Shown here piece after piece: positions 17,682 through 45,630 of a stretch of DNA of 64,000 nt. Source of the DNA: Eubacteriales bacterium (GTDB lineage Bacteria; Bacillota; Clostridia; Oscillospirales; CAG-272); contig JAZOCO010000045.1 of assembly GCA_045596505.1 (NCBI GenBank), positions 6,443-70,442 on the forward strand, read 5' to 3'. How positions within the stretch are numbered: the first letter of the stretch is position 1; each line of letters begins with the position of its first letter. A program made the translations under genes and the position numbers. The notes under the pieces were generated by a model, which saw only the letters and a program-made list of their open reading frames with translations, did no database searches and was not told the origin of the DNA.

Positions 17682-18278
17682 ATGGGATTTGGAATGTTGC
17701 TTATTGGCTACTTTTTGGCAAATATCTTACCTGTCATCTCTGCATTTTCCTTTGCAATGCTATTAGGATATCCGCTTGTAATCGCCGGACTTTACCGTTT
17801 AGCACCTTACGACAAGAGATTTTACCATTCTATGTGGGTAGCCTTGCCGTCCCCCCTCTTTGCCATATATTATACAGTTTTCGGGTTTGCAACAGTGGGG
17901 CTCTTACCGAGCTTTACTTTCCTTGGTGGAACGGTCTATTTTGTTGTTGAATGGCTCTATTTTTCCTATACACTACTGCTTAATTTTTTGATTTTGCGAA
18001 GCATAGCTTCTTTCACGGGAGATATGGGTCTTTACAGCACGCAAAGCGCGGCTTGGCGAAATTTAACCTTTACACTCATTTATCACGCTGTGTATTTGAT
18101 CATCAAATTGCCCATTCCGTTAATGCATGCCCACGGCGGGGCGTTTGCGTTGCCCGTTACTTTACTGCGCTATCTTTGCGTGTTTTTGAACCTGTGGCTC
18201 TTCTTCCTTTGCTATCGTAATATTCTACCCGAGGGAAGCGAAGCAACTGTCACACAAAACAAACGAAAGGAAAAGTAA
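17682..18278 (+). CDS. polytopic membrane protein, function unknown
   Basis: 198 aa, about 6 hydrophobic helices, directly downstream of secA. Shares an N-terminal module with the next gene. Confidence 0.65.
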   Translation: MGFGMLLIGYFLANILPVISAFSFAMLLGYPLVIAGLYRLAPYDKRFYHSMWVALPSPLFAIYYTVFGFATVGLLPSFTFLGGTVYFVVEWLYFSYTLLLNFLILRSIASFTGDMGLYSTQSAAWRNLTFTLIYHAVYLIIKLPIPLMHAHGGAFALPVTLLRYLCVFLNLWLFFLCYRNILPEGSEATVTQNKRKEK

Positions 18279-19673
18279 ATGAACAAGCAAAAATCCCTTC
18301 ATTTTGTTCCGGTTCTGATCGGTCTTTGTTTCTTTTTCAATCCCTATTTTGCCGTTATTGATTTTTTGCCCGATTTTATCGGGTGCCTGCTAATCGCTTT
18401 GGGTCTTTTCCATGTTTCTCGTATTTACGCACCGATGCGTGAGGCAAGACGTTCTTTTTTCATATTAGCCATCATTGATCTTGTTAAGAATTTGATGCTA
18501 CTGTTTGTTTTTGGAAATTCTGCATTGGGCGAACAGGAGGTGCTGGTGCTGATCGTTGCTTTTTTAAGTGCAACACTTGGCACTACCTTTACCGTTGTTG
18601 CAATGCGAAAGCTGTTTGACGGATTTGATTGGATCGCTTGGAGCTATGACTGTACGCCGCTGTATATGCCTGTGCTTGGGCGCAGGTCGCGCACTGAACT
18701 ATTTAGGCATTTCACGATCTTCTTCTTGATATTTAAAGAAACTGTGCTATTATTGCCCGAGTTTGCTTCGCTTCTCAATAGCTCGTATGTGAATTCGGAT
18801 ATGATCCGTATTTACGACTATATCGGCGTTATGCGTGTCCTCGCCATCATTCCCGCACTTATTTTGGGTATTCTTTGGCTTTGCGCCCTGATCTCCTATT
18901 TTGTACACCTACATAAGCAAAAGGAGCTTTTTGAACATTTAACTCTGCAATATCGCAGTTATATGTCCGAGCATCCCGGCATTCGCGTTTTGACAAGATA
19001 TACAGTCTCTTTTTTGCTGATCGGCACAGGCATGCTGTTGCTTGCTGATTTTTATCTTGATTTTCGCGATATTTTACCAGATCCTCTTGGCGGTGTCTTG
19101 ATCGTGATCGGCATTGCACTTTTGGGATTGCCAAAAAACAAGCTTCTTCCGGCACTGCTTTCTGCCTGTGCTTACACAGCTGCTTCGGCTTTCTCTTCCG
19201 GTAAAAGTTATGCATTCGTTTCTCATTATTCCGGCAGCGATATTGCACGTAGCGAAGAGGCGGCAGGTGCTTATGAAGCTATGTGGTTGTCTTCCCTTGG
19301 CGAGTTTGCCCTTTTTCTTATCTTACTCCTTTTCCTGCTTCTCGCTCTCCGCGCGGTACTCCTTAAATGGGGTGGATACGTTCCCCAGCACACCGACAGG
19401 GAATTTGAAAAAAGACACGCAAAAAAAATACACGATGAGTTTGATTGGCAATTTATAAAATGCTATATTTTCGGCTTTTTCAGCGCACTTTTATCTTTTT
19501 TCTTTGATTATTTTAAAACTTGGACAAATACGGAAAAACTTCGCTATTTTTCGAGATTTATGGAAGGACTTTGGATCCCGGATCTTTTGCTGGCACTCTT
19601 TTTCTCTATTTATTTATTTTATACCCTTGCTGGGGTGATGGAGAAAATTAAAGAGCGCTTCCAATTTGAATGA
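18279..19673 (+). CDS. polytopic membrane protein, function unknown (internally repeated module)
   Basis: 464 aa and about 10 or more helices. ATG immediately follows the previous stop. The module 'DFLPDFIGCLLIALGL' recurs as 'DILPDPLGGVLIVIGIALLGL'. Confidence 0.65.
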   Translation: MNKQKSLHFVPVLIGLCFFFNPYFAVIDFLPDFIGCLLIALGLFHVSRIYAPMREARRSFFILAIIDLVKNLMLLFVFGNSALGEQEVLVLIVAFLSATLGTTFTVVAMRKLFDGFDWIAWSYDCTPLYMPVLGRRSRTELFRHFTIFFLIFKETVLLLPEFASLLNSSYVNSDMIRIYDYIGVMRVLAIIPALILGILWLCALISYFVHLHKQKELFEHLTLQYRSYMSEHPGIRVLTRYTVSFLLIGTGMLLLADFYLDFRDILPDPLGGVLIVIGIALLGLPKNKLLPALLSACAYTAASAFSSGKSYAFVSHYSGSDIARSEEAAGAYEAMWLSSLGEFALFLILLLFLLLALRAVLLKWGGYVPQHTDREFEKRHAKKIHDEFDWQFIKCYIFGFFSALLSFFFDYFKTWTNTEKLRYFSRFMEGLWIPDLLLALFFSIYLFYTLAGVMEKIKERFQFE

Positions 19674-19684
19674 ACAACCTTTTA

Positions 19685-19715
19685 TGAATAACAACCTTTT
19701 GCCCATCACATACTA
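19685..19715 (+). promoter_or_regulatory. forespore-type (sigma-G/sigma-F-like) promoter candidate
   Basis: TGAATA (19685-19690), an 18-nt spacer, then CATACTA (19709-19715). This matches the Bacillus sigma-G consensus GnATR-18-CAtnnTA. It lies ~40 nt upstream of the microprotein start. Confidence 0.45.
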
Positions 19716-19754
19716 TTTCTGTCCCCGTGAATGATATAAAAGGAGATTTATGTG

Positions 19755-19892
19755 ATGCAGCAAAATCAGAACAACCAAAACAACCAGAATAGCCAAAACA
19801 ATCAGAATCAAAACAGAAATCAAAACAACCAAAACCAGAATAGGAACAATCAGAATAACCAAAACCAGAACAAGAACAACCAAAGCCGATAA
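19755..19892 (+). CDS. 45-aa Asn/Gln-rich microprotein (candidate small spore protein)
   Basis: Own translation: MQQNQNNQNNQNSQNNQNQNRNQNNQNQNRNNQNNQNQNKNNQSR*. RBS AAAGGAG (19739-19745) lies 9 nt before the ATG. It has a dedicated terminator and a sigma-G-like promoter. It is below the 60-aa ORF-track cutoff. Confidence 0.6.
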   Translation: MQQNQNNQNNQNSQNNQNQNRNQNNQNQNRNNQNNQNQNKNNQSR

Positions 19893-19905
19893 ATTGGCAA
19901 GGGGC

Positions 19906-19931
19906 GGGGCGGACTTGTTCGCCCCGTTTTT
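19906..19931 (+). terminator. rho-independent terminator of the microprotein gene
   Basis: GGGGCG (19906-19911) / CGCCCC (19920-19925), an 8-nt loop, then GTTTTT. Confidence 0.75.
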
Positions 19932-19953
19932 GATTACCAAAGAGAGGTTACAT

Positions 19954-22341
19954 ATGCCAGAACTAAACGAGCGCTATCTTGCCGTTAAGCGCGCGCTTTT
20001 TGACCGTTATTACAGTGATCTTAACGAAAAACAACGCGAGGCCGTTTATCACATCAACACACCGTTGCTGATCCTTGCAGGAGCAGGCAGCGGAAAAACG
20101 ACTGTCTTGGTACGGCGCATTGCCTATATGATACGATTTGGCAACGCTTATTTGAGCGATTATGTGCCATTTGACCTTGATCCTTTGCACGTTTCATCTC
20201 TTGAAGCGCAACTGCAAGCAGATATCACCAAAGAGGAGCTTGAGGCGATCCTGTCTGAATTCACCAACAATCCTTGCCCTCCTTGGCGTGTGCTTGCCAT
20301 TACCTTTACAAATAAGGCAGCAGGGGAGATCAAAGCACGCCTTAGTGCTGCTTTTCCTGAGGATCCACAGCTCACAGGTAGCATTTGGGCGGGCACGTTT
20401 CACTCAATTTGCATGCGTATCTTACGTCGATATACAGAGGCTGCCGGACTTCGCGAGGGTTTTTCCGTATACGATGCAGACGACAGTAAAAAGGCGATGC
20501 AAGCAGTACTGAAGGAACTCAATATTGATGATAAGATTCTTTCTCACAAGAAGGTTCTATCCACTATCAGTCGCGCTAAAGATAGGATGATCACTCCCGA
20601 AAGCTTTTTGCTTGAGATGGGGAATGATCACCCCATGCCACTGATCGCAAAAGCATATGAGGCGTATCAAAAGCGACTTGCCGCTTCCAATGCACTTGAC
20701 TTTGATGATATTATTTGCCGTACAGTACAGTTGCTTGAGAACAATAGGGAAATCAGAGAAAGCTACCAAAATCAGTTTCGGTACGTATCGGTGGACGAGT
20801 ATCAAGATACCAACGAGGCACAATTTAGGCTTTCAGCTTTATTATCCGGCGGCTGGCGCAATCTTATGGTGGTGGGTGATGACGATCAAAGTATTTACAA
20901 ATTCCGCGGCGCAACAATTACCAATATTTTAAATTTTGATCGCGTATTTCGCGATGCAAAAATCATCAAGCTTGAGCAAAATTACCGTTCCACACAATCC
21001 ATTTTAGATGCCGCCAATGCCGTCATCTCTCACAATGAGGGAAGAAAAGGAAACACGCTTTGGACAGATCGTGCTAAGGGAAATAAAATTCATTTACTCA
21101 ATCCCGATGACCAAAAAACAGAAGCACGTACCATTATTGATATTATTACTAAAAAGGTAGCAAATGAAGGTCTGCAATACCGAGATTTTGCTGTTTTATA
21201 CCGCACCAATGCACAATCGAACGCACTCGAAATGGCATTTGCCAGAAGTGCCGTGCCATATCGTATGCTGGGTGGCGTGCGATTTTCGGACCGTAAAGAG
21301 ATCCGTGACCTGGTAGCATATTTACAGCTTATTAACAATCATAGCGATCAGGATAGGCTTTTACGCATTATCAATGAGCCACGCCGCAAAATTGGTGAAA
21401 AAACGCTGTCTGCCATCGGAGAAATTGCCGTGCTTGAGGGATGCAGTATGTTTGATGTGTTAGAGCGCGCCGATCAATATCTTTCACTTTCGCGCTCCGC
21501 AGCCACACTGAAGGACTTTGCAGAGCTGATATGTGAGCTTACCGCACTTAGCCATACGCTCTCCCTTGATGACTTTGTAAGAGAAGTACTTTTACGTACA
21601 GGCTACCGTAAAATGATCGAAGAAATGGGTGCCGAGGAGGCTGATCGCCTTGATAACCTTGATGAATTCATTTCAAATGTGGTGGAATATCAAAACAATA
21701 CTGACACCCCCACGCTGACAGAGTTTCTTGAGGAAACGGCTTTGGTTGCCGATGTGGATCGATATGATGATACCGCAAATGCCGTTGTGCTGATGACTAT
21801 ACACAGCTCTAAAGGACTTGAATTTCCGCAGGTATTTTTACCGGGATTTGAGGAAGGCATATTTCCGGGTCTGCAAAGTGTTCTGGCAGGTCCTGATGAG
21901 ATCGAGGAAGAAAGACGCCTTGCTTACGTAGCGATCACACGTGCAAAAAACGAATTGTATATTTTACATACAAGATCGCGTATGCTATACGGACGCACGG
22001 GCGTAAATCCACCCTCGCGTTTTTTAGCGGAGATCCCCGAGCATTTATTAGAGCTTCCAAAAAGCAACGCGCCCGCTGCCGTAACGCGCTTTGCCCACAC
22101 ACCTTATCAAAGTGGTATGCAAGTAGCTTATTCGGATCATATTACAGTGGCAAAAATCATGCCCAAAGCAACGCTTGCTGATGCTTTTGAGGCAGGTGAT
22201 CGCGTGCGTCACGCACTTTTTGGAGAAGGTGAGATTCTGTCCGTGCAACGCATGGGCAGCGATTGGCTTTACGAAATTGCCTTTGATACCAAGGGCACAA
22301 AAAAACTGATGGCTACCTATGCGAAATTGCAAAAAATATAA
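19954..22341 (+). CDS. pcrA: ATP-dependent DNA helicase PcrA (UvrD family)
   Basis: 'AGAGSGKTTVLV', 'DEYQDTN', 'YRS(T)Q' and 'TIHSSKGLEF'. Start at ATG 19954 after AGAGAGG. The track start at 19894 lies inside the terminator. Confidence 0.9.
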   Translation: MPELNERYLAVKRALFDRYYSDLNEKQREAVYHINTPLLILAGAGSGKTTVLVRRIAYMIRFGNAYLSDYVPFDLDPLHVSSLEAQLQADITKEELEAILSEFTNNPCPPWRVLAITFTNKAAGEIKARLSAAFPEDPQLTGSIWAGTFHSICMRILRRYTEAAGLREGFSVYDADDSKKAMQAVLKELNIDDKILSHKKVLSTISRAKDRMITPESFLLEMGNDHPMPLIAKAYEAYQKRLAASNALDFDDIICRTVQLLENNREIRESYQNQFRYVSVDEYQDTNEAQFRLSALLSGGWRNLMVVGDDDQSIYKFRGATITNILNFDRVFRDAKIIKLEQNYRSTQSILDAANAVISHNEGRKGNTLWTDRAKGNKIHLLNPDDQKTEARTIIDIITKKVANEGLQYRDFAVLYRTNAQSNALEMAFARSAVPYRMLGGVRFSDRKEIRDLVAYLQLINNHSDQDRLLRIINEPRRKIGEKTLSAIGEIAVLEGCSMFDVLERADQYLSLSRSAATLKDFAELICELTALSHTLSLDDFVREVLLRTGYRKMIEEMGAEEADRLDNLDEFISNVVEYQNNTDTPTLTEFLEETALVADVDRYDDTANAVVLMTIHSSKGLEFPQVFLPGFEEGIFPGLQSVLAGPDEIEEERRLAYVAITRAKNELYILHTRSRMLYGRTGVNPPSRFLAEIPEHLLELPKSNAPAAVTRFAHTPYQSGMQVAYSDHITVAKIMPKATLADAFEAGDRVRHALFGEGEILSVQRMGSDWLYEIAFDTKGTKKLMATYAKLQKI

Positions 22342-44898: not shown

Positions 44899-45630
44899 AT
44901 GATGAAAAAATTACACTTGCTTCCCTTCACGCTCTCTTTCCTCTCTCTTTGCCTGATATTTTCTTCTCTTTCCCTTCATTATTTAGAGCCACGGCGTTCG
45001 GTTTTGAGCAACACCGATATTGCCAACACCCCCGTGATCATCATTGACGCGGGACACGGTGGCATTGACGGTGGGGCAGTTGGCGCTGACGGGACGGCGG
45101 AAAAGGATTTAAATCTTAAGATTTCAAAGAAGCTTGCCGCACTGCTCCGTTTGATGGGGTATGCGGTTGTAGAAACACGCACGGAGGATATTTCACTTGC
45201 AAGTGAAGATGCAAAAAAAGGACATATAAAACAATCTGACTTAGAAAACAGGCTAAGGATCGCCGCGCAATACGATAAAAAGGTTTTTGTAAGCATTCAT
45301 ATGAACACCTATTCGGGCGTTTCTTGCGAGGGGTTGCAGGTCTGGTATTCCGAGGGAGATGCCGCTTCGGCAGAAATCGCAAAGGCTGTCCAACAAGGGG
45401 TAAAAAACACTTTACAACCGCAAAATAACAGAAAAATAAAGCTTGCCACCTCCTCCATATATCTTTTGCGGCAAGCAACTTATCCCGCGATCCTCATTGA
45501 ATGCGGTTTTATTTCCAATTTAGACGAGTGTAAACGCCTTGGTGACGACCTTTATCAAAAGCAACTGGCGCTTGCTATTGCCGCTTCCATTTCTAAAAAT
45601 GTCAAAAACAATGCTTGCCAGAACGGGTAA
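44899..45630 (+). CDS. cwlD: N-acetylmuramoyl-L-alanine amidase, CwlD-like (germination-specific)
   Basis: Amidase_3 motifs 'IIIDAGHGGIDGGA', 'ISIHMN' and 'ECGFISN'. Single N-terminal TM helix and a size typical of CwlD. Confidence 0.75.
   Translation: MMKKLHLLPFTLSFLSLCLIFSSLSLHYLEPRRSVLSNTDIANTPVIIIDAGHGGIDGGAVGADGTAEKDLNLKISKKLAALLRLMGYAVVETRTEDISLASEDAKKGHIKQSDLENRLRIAAQYDKKVFVSIHMNTYSGVSCEGLQVWYSEGDAASAEIAKAVQQGVKNTLQPQNNRKIKLATSSIYLLRQATYPAILIECGFISNLDECKRLGDDLYQKQLALAIAASISKNVKNNACQNG

Follow-up and report, generated by a model that had tools for sequence, protein, structure and literature searches.

The subject of this study is a 45-residue open reading frame (ORF), hereafter the microORF, in a 64-kb stretch (the window) of contig JAZOCO010000045.1 from an Eubacteriales bacterium, where it lies between a gene for a 464-residue membrane protein and the helicase gene pcrA. 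Its product consists almost entirely of Asn and Gln. Our analysis indicates that the microORF is very probably a real gene, since the reading frame, the ATG, the Shine-Dalgarno (SD) site, the promoter and the terminator hairpin are all kept in at least 13 lineages and the substitution pattern points to selection on the composition of the product. The gene looks like an undescribed kind of gene for a small forespore-type spore protein, outside the existing families. The host group, to which the gene is so far confined, is a family of uncultured gut Clostridia (Oscillospiraceae/Ruminococcaceae-like metagenome-assembled genomes, MAGs).

Results

The microORF and its signals in the window

Direct reading of the sequence placed the promoter, the ribosome-binding site (RBS), the ORF and the terminator at the positions proposed in a first-pass annotation of this DNA (Table 1). 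Together they form what we predict to be an autonomous small gene, equipped with a promoter, RBS, ORF and terminator of its own. The deduced peptide, MQQNQNNQNNQNSQNNQNQNRNQNNQNQNRNNQNNQNQNKNNQSR, contains 38 Asn or Gln residues out of 45 (84% N+Q); the first-pass annotation had counted 39, although the seven exceptions that it listed give 38. The peptide has four Lys or Arg residues and no Asp or Glu, and its isoelectric point (pI) is about 12. No other N/Q-rich stretch is present in any frame of the 64-kb window. The ORF list of the window contains a 46-residue version at 19752-19892, which starts at a GTG 3 bases 5' of the ATG, and also a 75-residue antisense Leu/Val/Ile mirror ORF at 19713-19940.

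Folding agreed with the proposal that a GC-rich hairpin and a T-run terminate transcription after the microORF: the terminator region gave -23 kcal/mol (z = -3.1 versus shuffles, wider region). The hairpin was not listed by a consensus terminator scanner, as the loop of its perfect stem measures 8 nt and no more than five T residues come after it. A sigma-70 consensus scan of the region returned two promoter-like sites against 1.6 expected, both inside the upstream gene.

Orthologous loci

Relatives were traced by synteny, since the composition correction of HMMER removes the signal of the peptide. GTDB species genomes were scanned with PcrA and metagenomes with the 464-residue membrane protein, and further loci were obtained from homologs of that membrane protein, followed by exact-gene look-ups. 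Counting the window, 13 lineages carry the module, consisting of promoter, RBS, ATG, N/Q frame and hairpin, between the gene for the 464-residue membrane protein and pcrA (Table 2). Among these lineages, the flanking membrane protein is 37-86% identical to that of the window, and the peptide is 22-59 residues long, always in frame. Where one species was represented by several independent samples (L085/86/87, L088/89, L091/92 and L095/96), the repeats are identical and no microsatellite-like length polymorphism was found. The gene callers of several assemblies annotate genes of 42-59 residues here, labelled as hypothetical protein in some MAG annotations; literature searches found no description of the microprotein.

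In the related lineages L093/94, L003, L004 and L005 the module is absent and the membrane-protein gene directly abuts pcrA. The module is also absent from more distant PcrA loci and from L099, where synteny differs.

Coding constraint and composition

The 541 non-Met codons of 12 orthologs encode mainly Asn (276) and Gln (179), followed by Lys (38), Ser (14), Arg (14), Tyr (10), Gly (4), Asp (3), Val (2) and Glu (1); His, Thr, Ile, Pro, Leu, Ala, Phe, Cys and Trp do not occur. The peptide of L100, which is outside this set, ends in Phe. Of the 541 codons, 507 have A at position 2, and all four bases occur at position 3. The choice of the third base depends on the first, with an AAY:AAR ratio of 276:38 and a CAY:CAR ratio of 0:179 (Fisher p = 5e-97). 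Codons beginning with CA end only in A or G, so that His is never encoded, and those beginning with AA end mostly in C or T.

In four pairs aligned at the DNA level, without protein guidance, mismatches at codon positions 1, 2 and 3 numbered 10, 9 and 55 (186 sites each), and the indels were multiples of 3. Protein-guided comparison of five longer pairs gave synonymous-to-nonsynonymous counts of 11:5, 14:6, 18:9, 17:9 and 20:5, with 2:3 for the short L084/L001 pair. An Asn or Gln codon can change by a single base in nine ways, of which one is synonymous. The first-pass annotation had suggested a check of synonymous against nonsynonymous variation, and the substitutions proved to be mostly at wobble positions and synonymous. 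All of the coding-signal tests point in the same direction.

Like the codons for Lys, Arg, Ser and Tyr, those for His, Thr, Ile, Pro, Leu and stop are single-step neighbours of the Asn and Gln codons; the complete absence of this second group indicates selection for a polar, basic product. The orthologs contain 59-88% N+Q, three to six Lys or Arg residues and at most one Asp or Glu, with a pI of 9.7-12 and a grand average of hydropathy (GRAVY) of about -3.3; a basic residue recurs every 6-10 positions. Length, repeat period and residue order drift among them and composition is held. These results indicate that the ORF is under purifying selection for its composition, namely Asn and Gln with some Lys, Arg, Ser and Tyr, almost no acidic residues and no hydrophobic ones.

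Conservation of promoter, RBS and terminator

Promoter boxes of the form GAATA-17/18-CA[T/C/A]ACTA are present in 11 of the 13 lineages; the divergent promoters are GGATA-17-TATACTA in L001 and GTATA-18-AATACTA in L097. The -10 element occurs as CATACTA, CACACTA, CAAACTA, TATACTA or AATACTA, always with the ACTA end. The spacer between the boxes and the 5' untranslated region are not conserved across lineages, the repeat architecture diverges as well, and the distance from the end of the -10 box to the ATG ranges from 31 to 53 nt. For the strict motif GAATA-N17/18-CANACTA, the window contains one match (0.01 expected), and 806,124 bases from 99 loci contain 14, in every case 5' of a microORF and nowhere else. 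A relaxed motif, G[ACT]AT[AG]-17/18-CA[ACT][AT][ACT]TA, was uninformative, with three matches against 1.8 expected in the scan.

The window promoter, TGAATA-18-CATACTA, agrees with GnATR-17/18-CAtnnTA, the consensus used as the criterion for the sigma-G/sigma-F regulon. The consensus sequences of sigma-F and of sigma-G in clostridia resemble each other and those of B. subtilis; the main difference is that the sigma-F consensus has a G upstream of the -10 element and the sigma-G consensus an A at the downstream side of that element (PMC3789822; PMC7438776). In the module the terminal A of the -10 element is invariant, yet a G precedes the element in about half of the lineages, so that sigma-G and sigma-F are not separated. 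The match and its conservation suggest that the promoter is probably of the forespore type.

In most orthologs (e.g. L085), the -35 element TGAATA overlaps the TGA stop codon of the 464-residue gene. In the window the two are separated by a 17-nt tandem duplication, TGAATGAACAACCTTTTA followed by TGAATAACAACCTTTTG (19667-19700), and the 18-nt distance from TGAATA to CATACTA is retained by the second copy alone. Selection therefore seems to act on the promoter independently of the coding sequence upstream.

Each of the 13 lineages has a site with GGAG 5-10 nt ahead of the ATG. Within 5-25 nt of the stop codon, a GC-rich hairpin (-18 to -32 kcal/mol) follows in each of the 11 further loci that have sequence there, with a T-run behind it in all except L095. 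The stems differ between lineages, indicating that the structure is kept and not the sequence. The first-pass annotation had held that a repeat without a conserved frame, start or RBS, or length-polymorphic behaviour typical of microsatellites, would argue against a gene; on these points, as on all its predictions at the sequence level, the outcome was in its favour.

A start-stop mini-ORF, NTG-TGA (NTG TGA TG), overlaps the ATG of the microORF at 19750-19757 (ATGTGATG) and is found at the same position in L085, L088, L081, L090, L084 and L091, seven lineages in total. This overlap may reflect plain conservation among relatives, or may be a start-stop element that affects initiation.

Family and homology searches

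A phmmer search of word-sharing candidates from 5.8 billion proteins examined 36 candidates, none of which reached E <= 10, and a full phmmer search against 1.84 billion representatives gave no matches. An exact look-up of four versions of the peptide in the protein collection found none of them. The composition correction of HMMER blinds such searches to this peptide, and their negatives are weak and no proof of absence. When five orthologous peptides were scanned with hmmscan against Pfam and NCBIfam at E <= 10, no family matched, including SASP, SspE and the minor small acid-soluble proteins of the spore (SASPs). This negative, too, is weak by itself on account of the composition correction. 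The first-pass annotation had not recognised this type of composition among the named Ssp families, and in these two databases neither a named Ssp family nor any other matched. In Rfam 15 nothing reached the gathering score; CrcZ scored 13 bits (gathering 95, E = 0.24) and engA RNA 17 bits (gathering 46). No site of the type cleaved by the germination protease GPR was present in the 541 codons of the 12 orthologs (one Glu; no Phe, Ile or Ala) or in L100.

Genomic neighbourhood

In the window and in eight other lineages (L085, L088, L090, L084, L001, L091, L006 and L095) the SD site of pcrA lies 8-25 nt after the T-run of the module. The 22 nt between the T-run and the pcrA ATG in the window imply that pcrA is reached by read-through. 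L097, L098 and L100 have a spacer of about 100 nt with a perfect extended -10 element, TGTATAAT, between the terminator and pcrA; the consensus scan misses these promoters in L097 and L098, which have no -35 element, and the sites were read directly. In nine lineages, therefore, the essential helicase gene pcrA apparently depends on read-through of a strong terminator.

Behind pcrA lie a gene for a 222-residue protein of unknown function and then pdaA-like and pdaB-like deacetylase genes. Together with a cwlD-like gene, these two match gene families of the spore cortex (muramic delta-lactam); no other sporulation-related genes were found in the window, and all three score below the NCBIfam equivalog cut-offs. 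The remaining genes are housekeeping genes, among them dnaE, a class A penicillin-binding protein gene, clpXP, tig, thrC, rnhB, ylqF, purA and comEC. The first-pass description of the window as rich in other sporulation genes was thus overstated, but a spore-forming lifestyle is plausible. A relaxed forespore-like motif, GTATG-18-CATATTA, occurs at 22115-22144 inside the 3' end of pcrA, about 210 nt 5' of the 222-residue ORF that precedes the pdaA-like and pdaB-like genes, and is not above chance.

The pair of genes for 198- and 464-residue membrane proteins after secA is conserved, with 85 homologs, mostly from gut and rumen assemblies, and the homologs share the C-terminus ...KERF(Q/R/E)FE. 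In L097 (2790-2905) the membrane-protein gene lacks its usual stop codon and is about 37 codons longer (501 versus 464 residues); the extension crosses the promoter into the start of the microORF, in another frame. The most distant membrane-protein homolog locus, L099 (3030-3350), has dnaX as its downstream neighbour, with no pcrA and no microORF; a structured-looking GC-rich non-coding stretch, possibly signal recognition particle RNA, precedes dnaX.

Table 1. Features of the microORF module and neighbouring genes in the window
Feature	Position	Strand	Remarks
-35 element TGAATA	19685-19690	+	forespore-type (sigma-G/sigma-F) promoter, predicted; read directly
-10 element CATACTA	19709-19715	+	18-nt spacer after -35; read directly
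SD site AAAGGAG	19739-19745	+	9 nt 5' of ATG; read directly
microORF	19755-19892	+	45 residues and stop; ATG 19755, TAA 19890-19892, read directly; orthologs at the same place in 12 other lineages
Intrinsic terminator, GC hairpin and TTTTT	19901-19931	+	from folding; perfect stem GGGGCG 19906-19911 paired with CGCCCC 19920-19925; TTTTT 19927-19931
SD site AAAGAGAGG and ATG (19954) of pcrA	19940-19956	+	start of the neighbouring gene, outside the module
pcrA (UvrD/PcrA helicase)	19954-22341	+	Pfam UvrD-helicase, UvrD_C, PcrA_UvrD_tudor
secA	14913-17654		gene order 5' of the microORF
198- and 464-residue polytopic membrane proteins	17682-19673		between secA and the microORF; no Pfam family
cwlD-like amidase	44899-45630		below NCBIfam equivalog cut-off

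Table 2. Lineages other than the window that carry the module
Lineage	Peptide (residues)	Identity to the window	Source or sequence
L001	22	PcrA 76%	GTDB PcrA scan; MNNQNKNKSQNQGRNQVGNKNQ
L006	56	PcrA 72%	GTDB PcrA scan; MQNQNQNQNYNK...QQKKDY
L081	55		metagenome scan with the 464-residue membrane protein
L084	40		metagenome scan with the 464-residue membrane protein
L085/86/87	52	membrane protein 86%	
L088/89	45	membrane protein 65%	
L090	59	membrane protein 61%	
L091/92	48	membrane protein 53%	
L095/96	42	membrane protein 41%	
L097	42	membrane protein 43%	
L098	47	membrane protein 37%	
L100	52	membrane protein 41%	

Discussion

The repetitive, A/C-rich nature of the locus raises the question of whether the frame matters at all. 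A non-coding element, either a slippage-prone microsatellite or an RNA array such as an (AAN)n sponge for Hfq/Crc or a C-rich, G-poor Rho-loading site, would leave the frame incidental. Tandem Repeats Finder indeed gives degenerate periods of 9, 15, 18 and 30 nt, lineages range from 22 to 59 codons, and the repeat weakly resembles the A-rich small RNA CrcZ; nevertheless every length difference is in frame, the repeats are identical among independent same-species samples, and none of the Rfam families scores above threshold. Composition alone keeps two of the three sense frames open, and the mirror antisense frame as well, yet it is the N/Q frame that has the ATG and the SD site in all 13 lineages. 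Moreover, a free "N" in an RNA triplet would not be expected to follow the genetic code at the third base as it does here (276:38 versus 0:179), and His, Thr, Ile, Pro, Leu and stop codons never appear in the 541 codons, whereas Lys, Arg, Ser and Tyr do. We therefore consider a non-coding element very improbable. Hardly credible is the reading in which the real gene is the antisense ORF (75 residues, 19940-19713, minus strand), encoding a small hydrophobic Leu/Val/Ile membrane peptide such as a type I toxin. It is the longer ORF in the list and is open in all orthologs, but this openness is automatic from the mirrored AAY and CAR codons. Its first start codons are TTG or GTG at differing places, some of them inside the terminator or the pcrA leader, with no SD site and no conserved N-terminus in the orthologs; the consensus scan found no promoter motif on the minus strand, and a peptide of Leu, Val and Ile only, without charged flanks, is unlike known toxins. 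The antisense ORF was rejected, as neither its start nor an SD site is conserved among orthologs.

The position of the microORF before pcrA raises another possible function, regulation of pcrA by a leader peptide or an upstream ORF. Whether transcription terminates at the hairpin would then depend on translation of the N/Q codons, through attenuation by Asn/Gln-tRNA charging or through masking of the hairpin by the ribosome, and the promoter would serve forespore expression of pcrA. The window and eight lineages leave pcrA no room for a promoter, so that it is accessible only through the hairpin; a terminating ribosome would overlap the stem, which is 8-14 nt beyond the stop codon; and pcrA directly abuts the membrane-protein gene in lineages without the module. 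However, L097, L098 and L100 keep promoter, ORF and terminator while pcrA has its own extended -10 element after the terminator, which argues that the ORF is not a pcrA leader. The fold of 19722-19935 leaves the near-pure A/C ORF unpaired, and only the terminator forms, with no antiterminator. Known attenuators carry a few regulatory codons for their own pathway; the 22-59 N/Q codons under selection for composition far exceed what a sensor needs, and a DNA helicase is unconnected with the supply of Asn or Gln. A leader function is thus improbable, though less so than the two preceding readings. Compared with leader peptides of the trp, his and pyrBI type, the module shares a short ORF with a codon run, followed by a terminator and a downstream gene. 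It differs in having no antiterminator and a dedicated forespore-type promoter (predicted), in persisting where pcrA has its own promoter, and in preceding a gene unrelated to Asn/Gln metabolism.

We therefore return to a gene for a small spore protein, and compare it with known families. SspE, a gamma-type SASP, is small, hydrophilic and repetitive, with a Gln/Asn-rich composition. The microprotein shares all these properties, with composition and repeats in an extreme form, and its gene is predicted to be monocistronic like that of SspE, with a strong RBS, a terminator of its own and a promoter of the sigma-G type. In contrast, it has no sequence similarity to SspE and no Pfam or NCBIfam match; it contains 59-88% N+Q versus roughly a third, is basic versus near-neutral, and is half as long. 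The GPR site of alpha/beta- and gamma-type SASPs is a pentapeptide of the type E-[FIY]-[AG]-[SNQ]-E, and the microprotein has no such motif, which needs Glu, Phe or Ile, Ala or Gly, and Ser. The alpha/beta SASPs (SspA/SspB, Pfam SASP), which are abundant in the spore core, are likewise small forespore proteins with sigma-G promoters (predicted from sequence for the microORF). Their DNA-binding sequence is conserved and foldable, and they carry GPR sites, whereas the microprotein has neither, and almost all residue types of the SASP core are missing from the 541 codons of the orthologs.

The closest kind is that of the minor Bacillus SASPs (SspG-SspP, Tlp), which are lineage-restricted, hydrophilic proteins of 30-60 residues, sigma-G-dependent (as predicted for the microORF from its promoter) and of unknown or dispensable function. 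The microprotein differs in matching no NCBIfam or Pfam family, and we know of no named minor SASP that is a two-residue polymer. The module thus appears to be organised like a minor or gamma-type SASP gene, yet it matches no family profile and lacks both a GPR site and a DNA-binding core. SASPs are driven by sigma-G, and the gamma type has been proposed as an amino-acid reservoir, with none found in clostridial species (PMC8452069). The microprotein differs from SspE in this respect too, as it occurs in Clostridia.

Two further comparisons concern the low-complexity sequence itself. GerG of Clostridioides difficile is a spore-associated protein with Asn-rich low-complexity repeats, which vary in number and gel spontaneously in vitro (PMC5241399). 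The microprotein has in common with GerG an Asn-rich low-complexity repeat and a link to the spore, here predicted. The two are unrelated: GerG is much larger, contains about 30% Asn together with Met, Pro, Ser and Gly (GMPNNMSNNMNSNM repeats), depends on sigma-E for its production in the mother cell and acts in Csp incorporation, for which its repeats are dispensable. Eukaryotic prion-like domains share the extreme Q/N content and the expectation that composition matters over residue order. The microprotein differs from them as a free-standing bacterial peptide of 22-59 residues, in which the spaced basic residues would be expected to oppose amyloid.

The explanation that we favour is a forespore-driven, basic, disordered N/Q polymer with a bulk reserve or protectant role, and in this full form we regard it as reasonably likely. 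Forespore RNA polymerase, with sigma-G and possibly also sigma-F, would read the conserved motif, and a burst of synthesis late in sporulation would yield the peptide, which would then be packed into the core. As composition only is conserved, the product is most likely a bulk material and not a specific binder. A soluble, uncharged-to-basic polymer could store amide nitrogen and amino acids, with two N atoms for each Asn or Gln residue, and proteolysis at germination would release them for outgrowth, making the microprotein a functional analogue of the gamma-type SASPs. The regularly spaced Lys and Arg residues may be solubility "gatekeepers" that prevent N/Q amyloid. The nitrogen reserve as the specific mechanism is tentative, and a hydrogen-bonding matrix or a hydration role in the dehydrated core is a close second to it. 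Rather unlikely, but worth stating, is that poly(Asn/Gln) is an abundant structural component of the spore core: a reversible hydrogen-bonded gel or glass, perhaps coating nucleic acids through Lys and Arg, that would aid core immobilisation and dormancy and, once dissolved or digested at germination, would supply amide nitrogen in a burst.

Several points weigh against a dedicated spore protein. The predicted sporulation capacity is drawn from the three below-cut-off matches to cortex-modification families, and the predicted promoter class rests on a consensus match and its conservation. As the peptide has no GPR-type site, a different protease would have to degrade it at germination. In most lineages the module stands in an operon-like arrangement in which pcrA has no room for its own promoter, and vegetative read-through transcripts would carry the same SD site and ORF, so that expression may not be confined to spores. 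The module is dispensable, since related lineages lack it. Finally, repeat-unit duplication may inflate the substitution statistics, and not all of the counted events are independent.

Much of the protein in spores consists of small forespore proteins, which are poorly understood outside the alpha/beta SASPs, and the microprotein is a candidate for the missing clostridial gamma-type reserve role. The family was revealed only by synteny, although its orthologs are called as genes in public assemblies; low-complexity microproteins of this sort are probably missed systematically by HMMER-based homology pipelines. As a two-letter polymer, the microprotein offers a natural test case for the behaviour of pure N/Q sequence in a dehydrated cytoplasm. 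If the core-gel proposal were true, it would represent a new biophysical class of spore protectant and a physiological use of prion-like Q/N sequence by bacteria.

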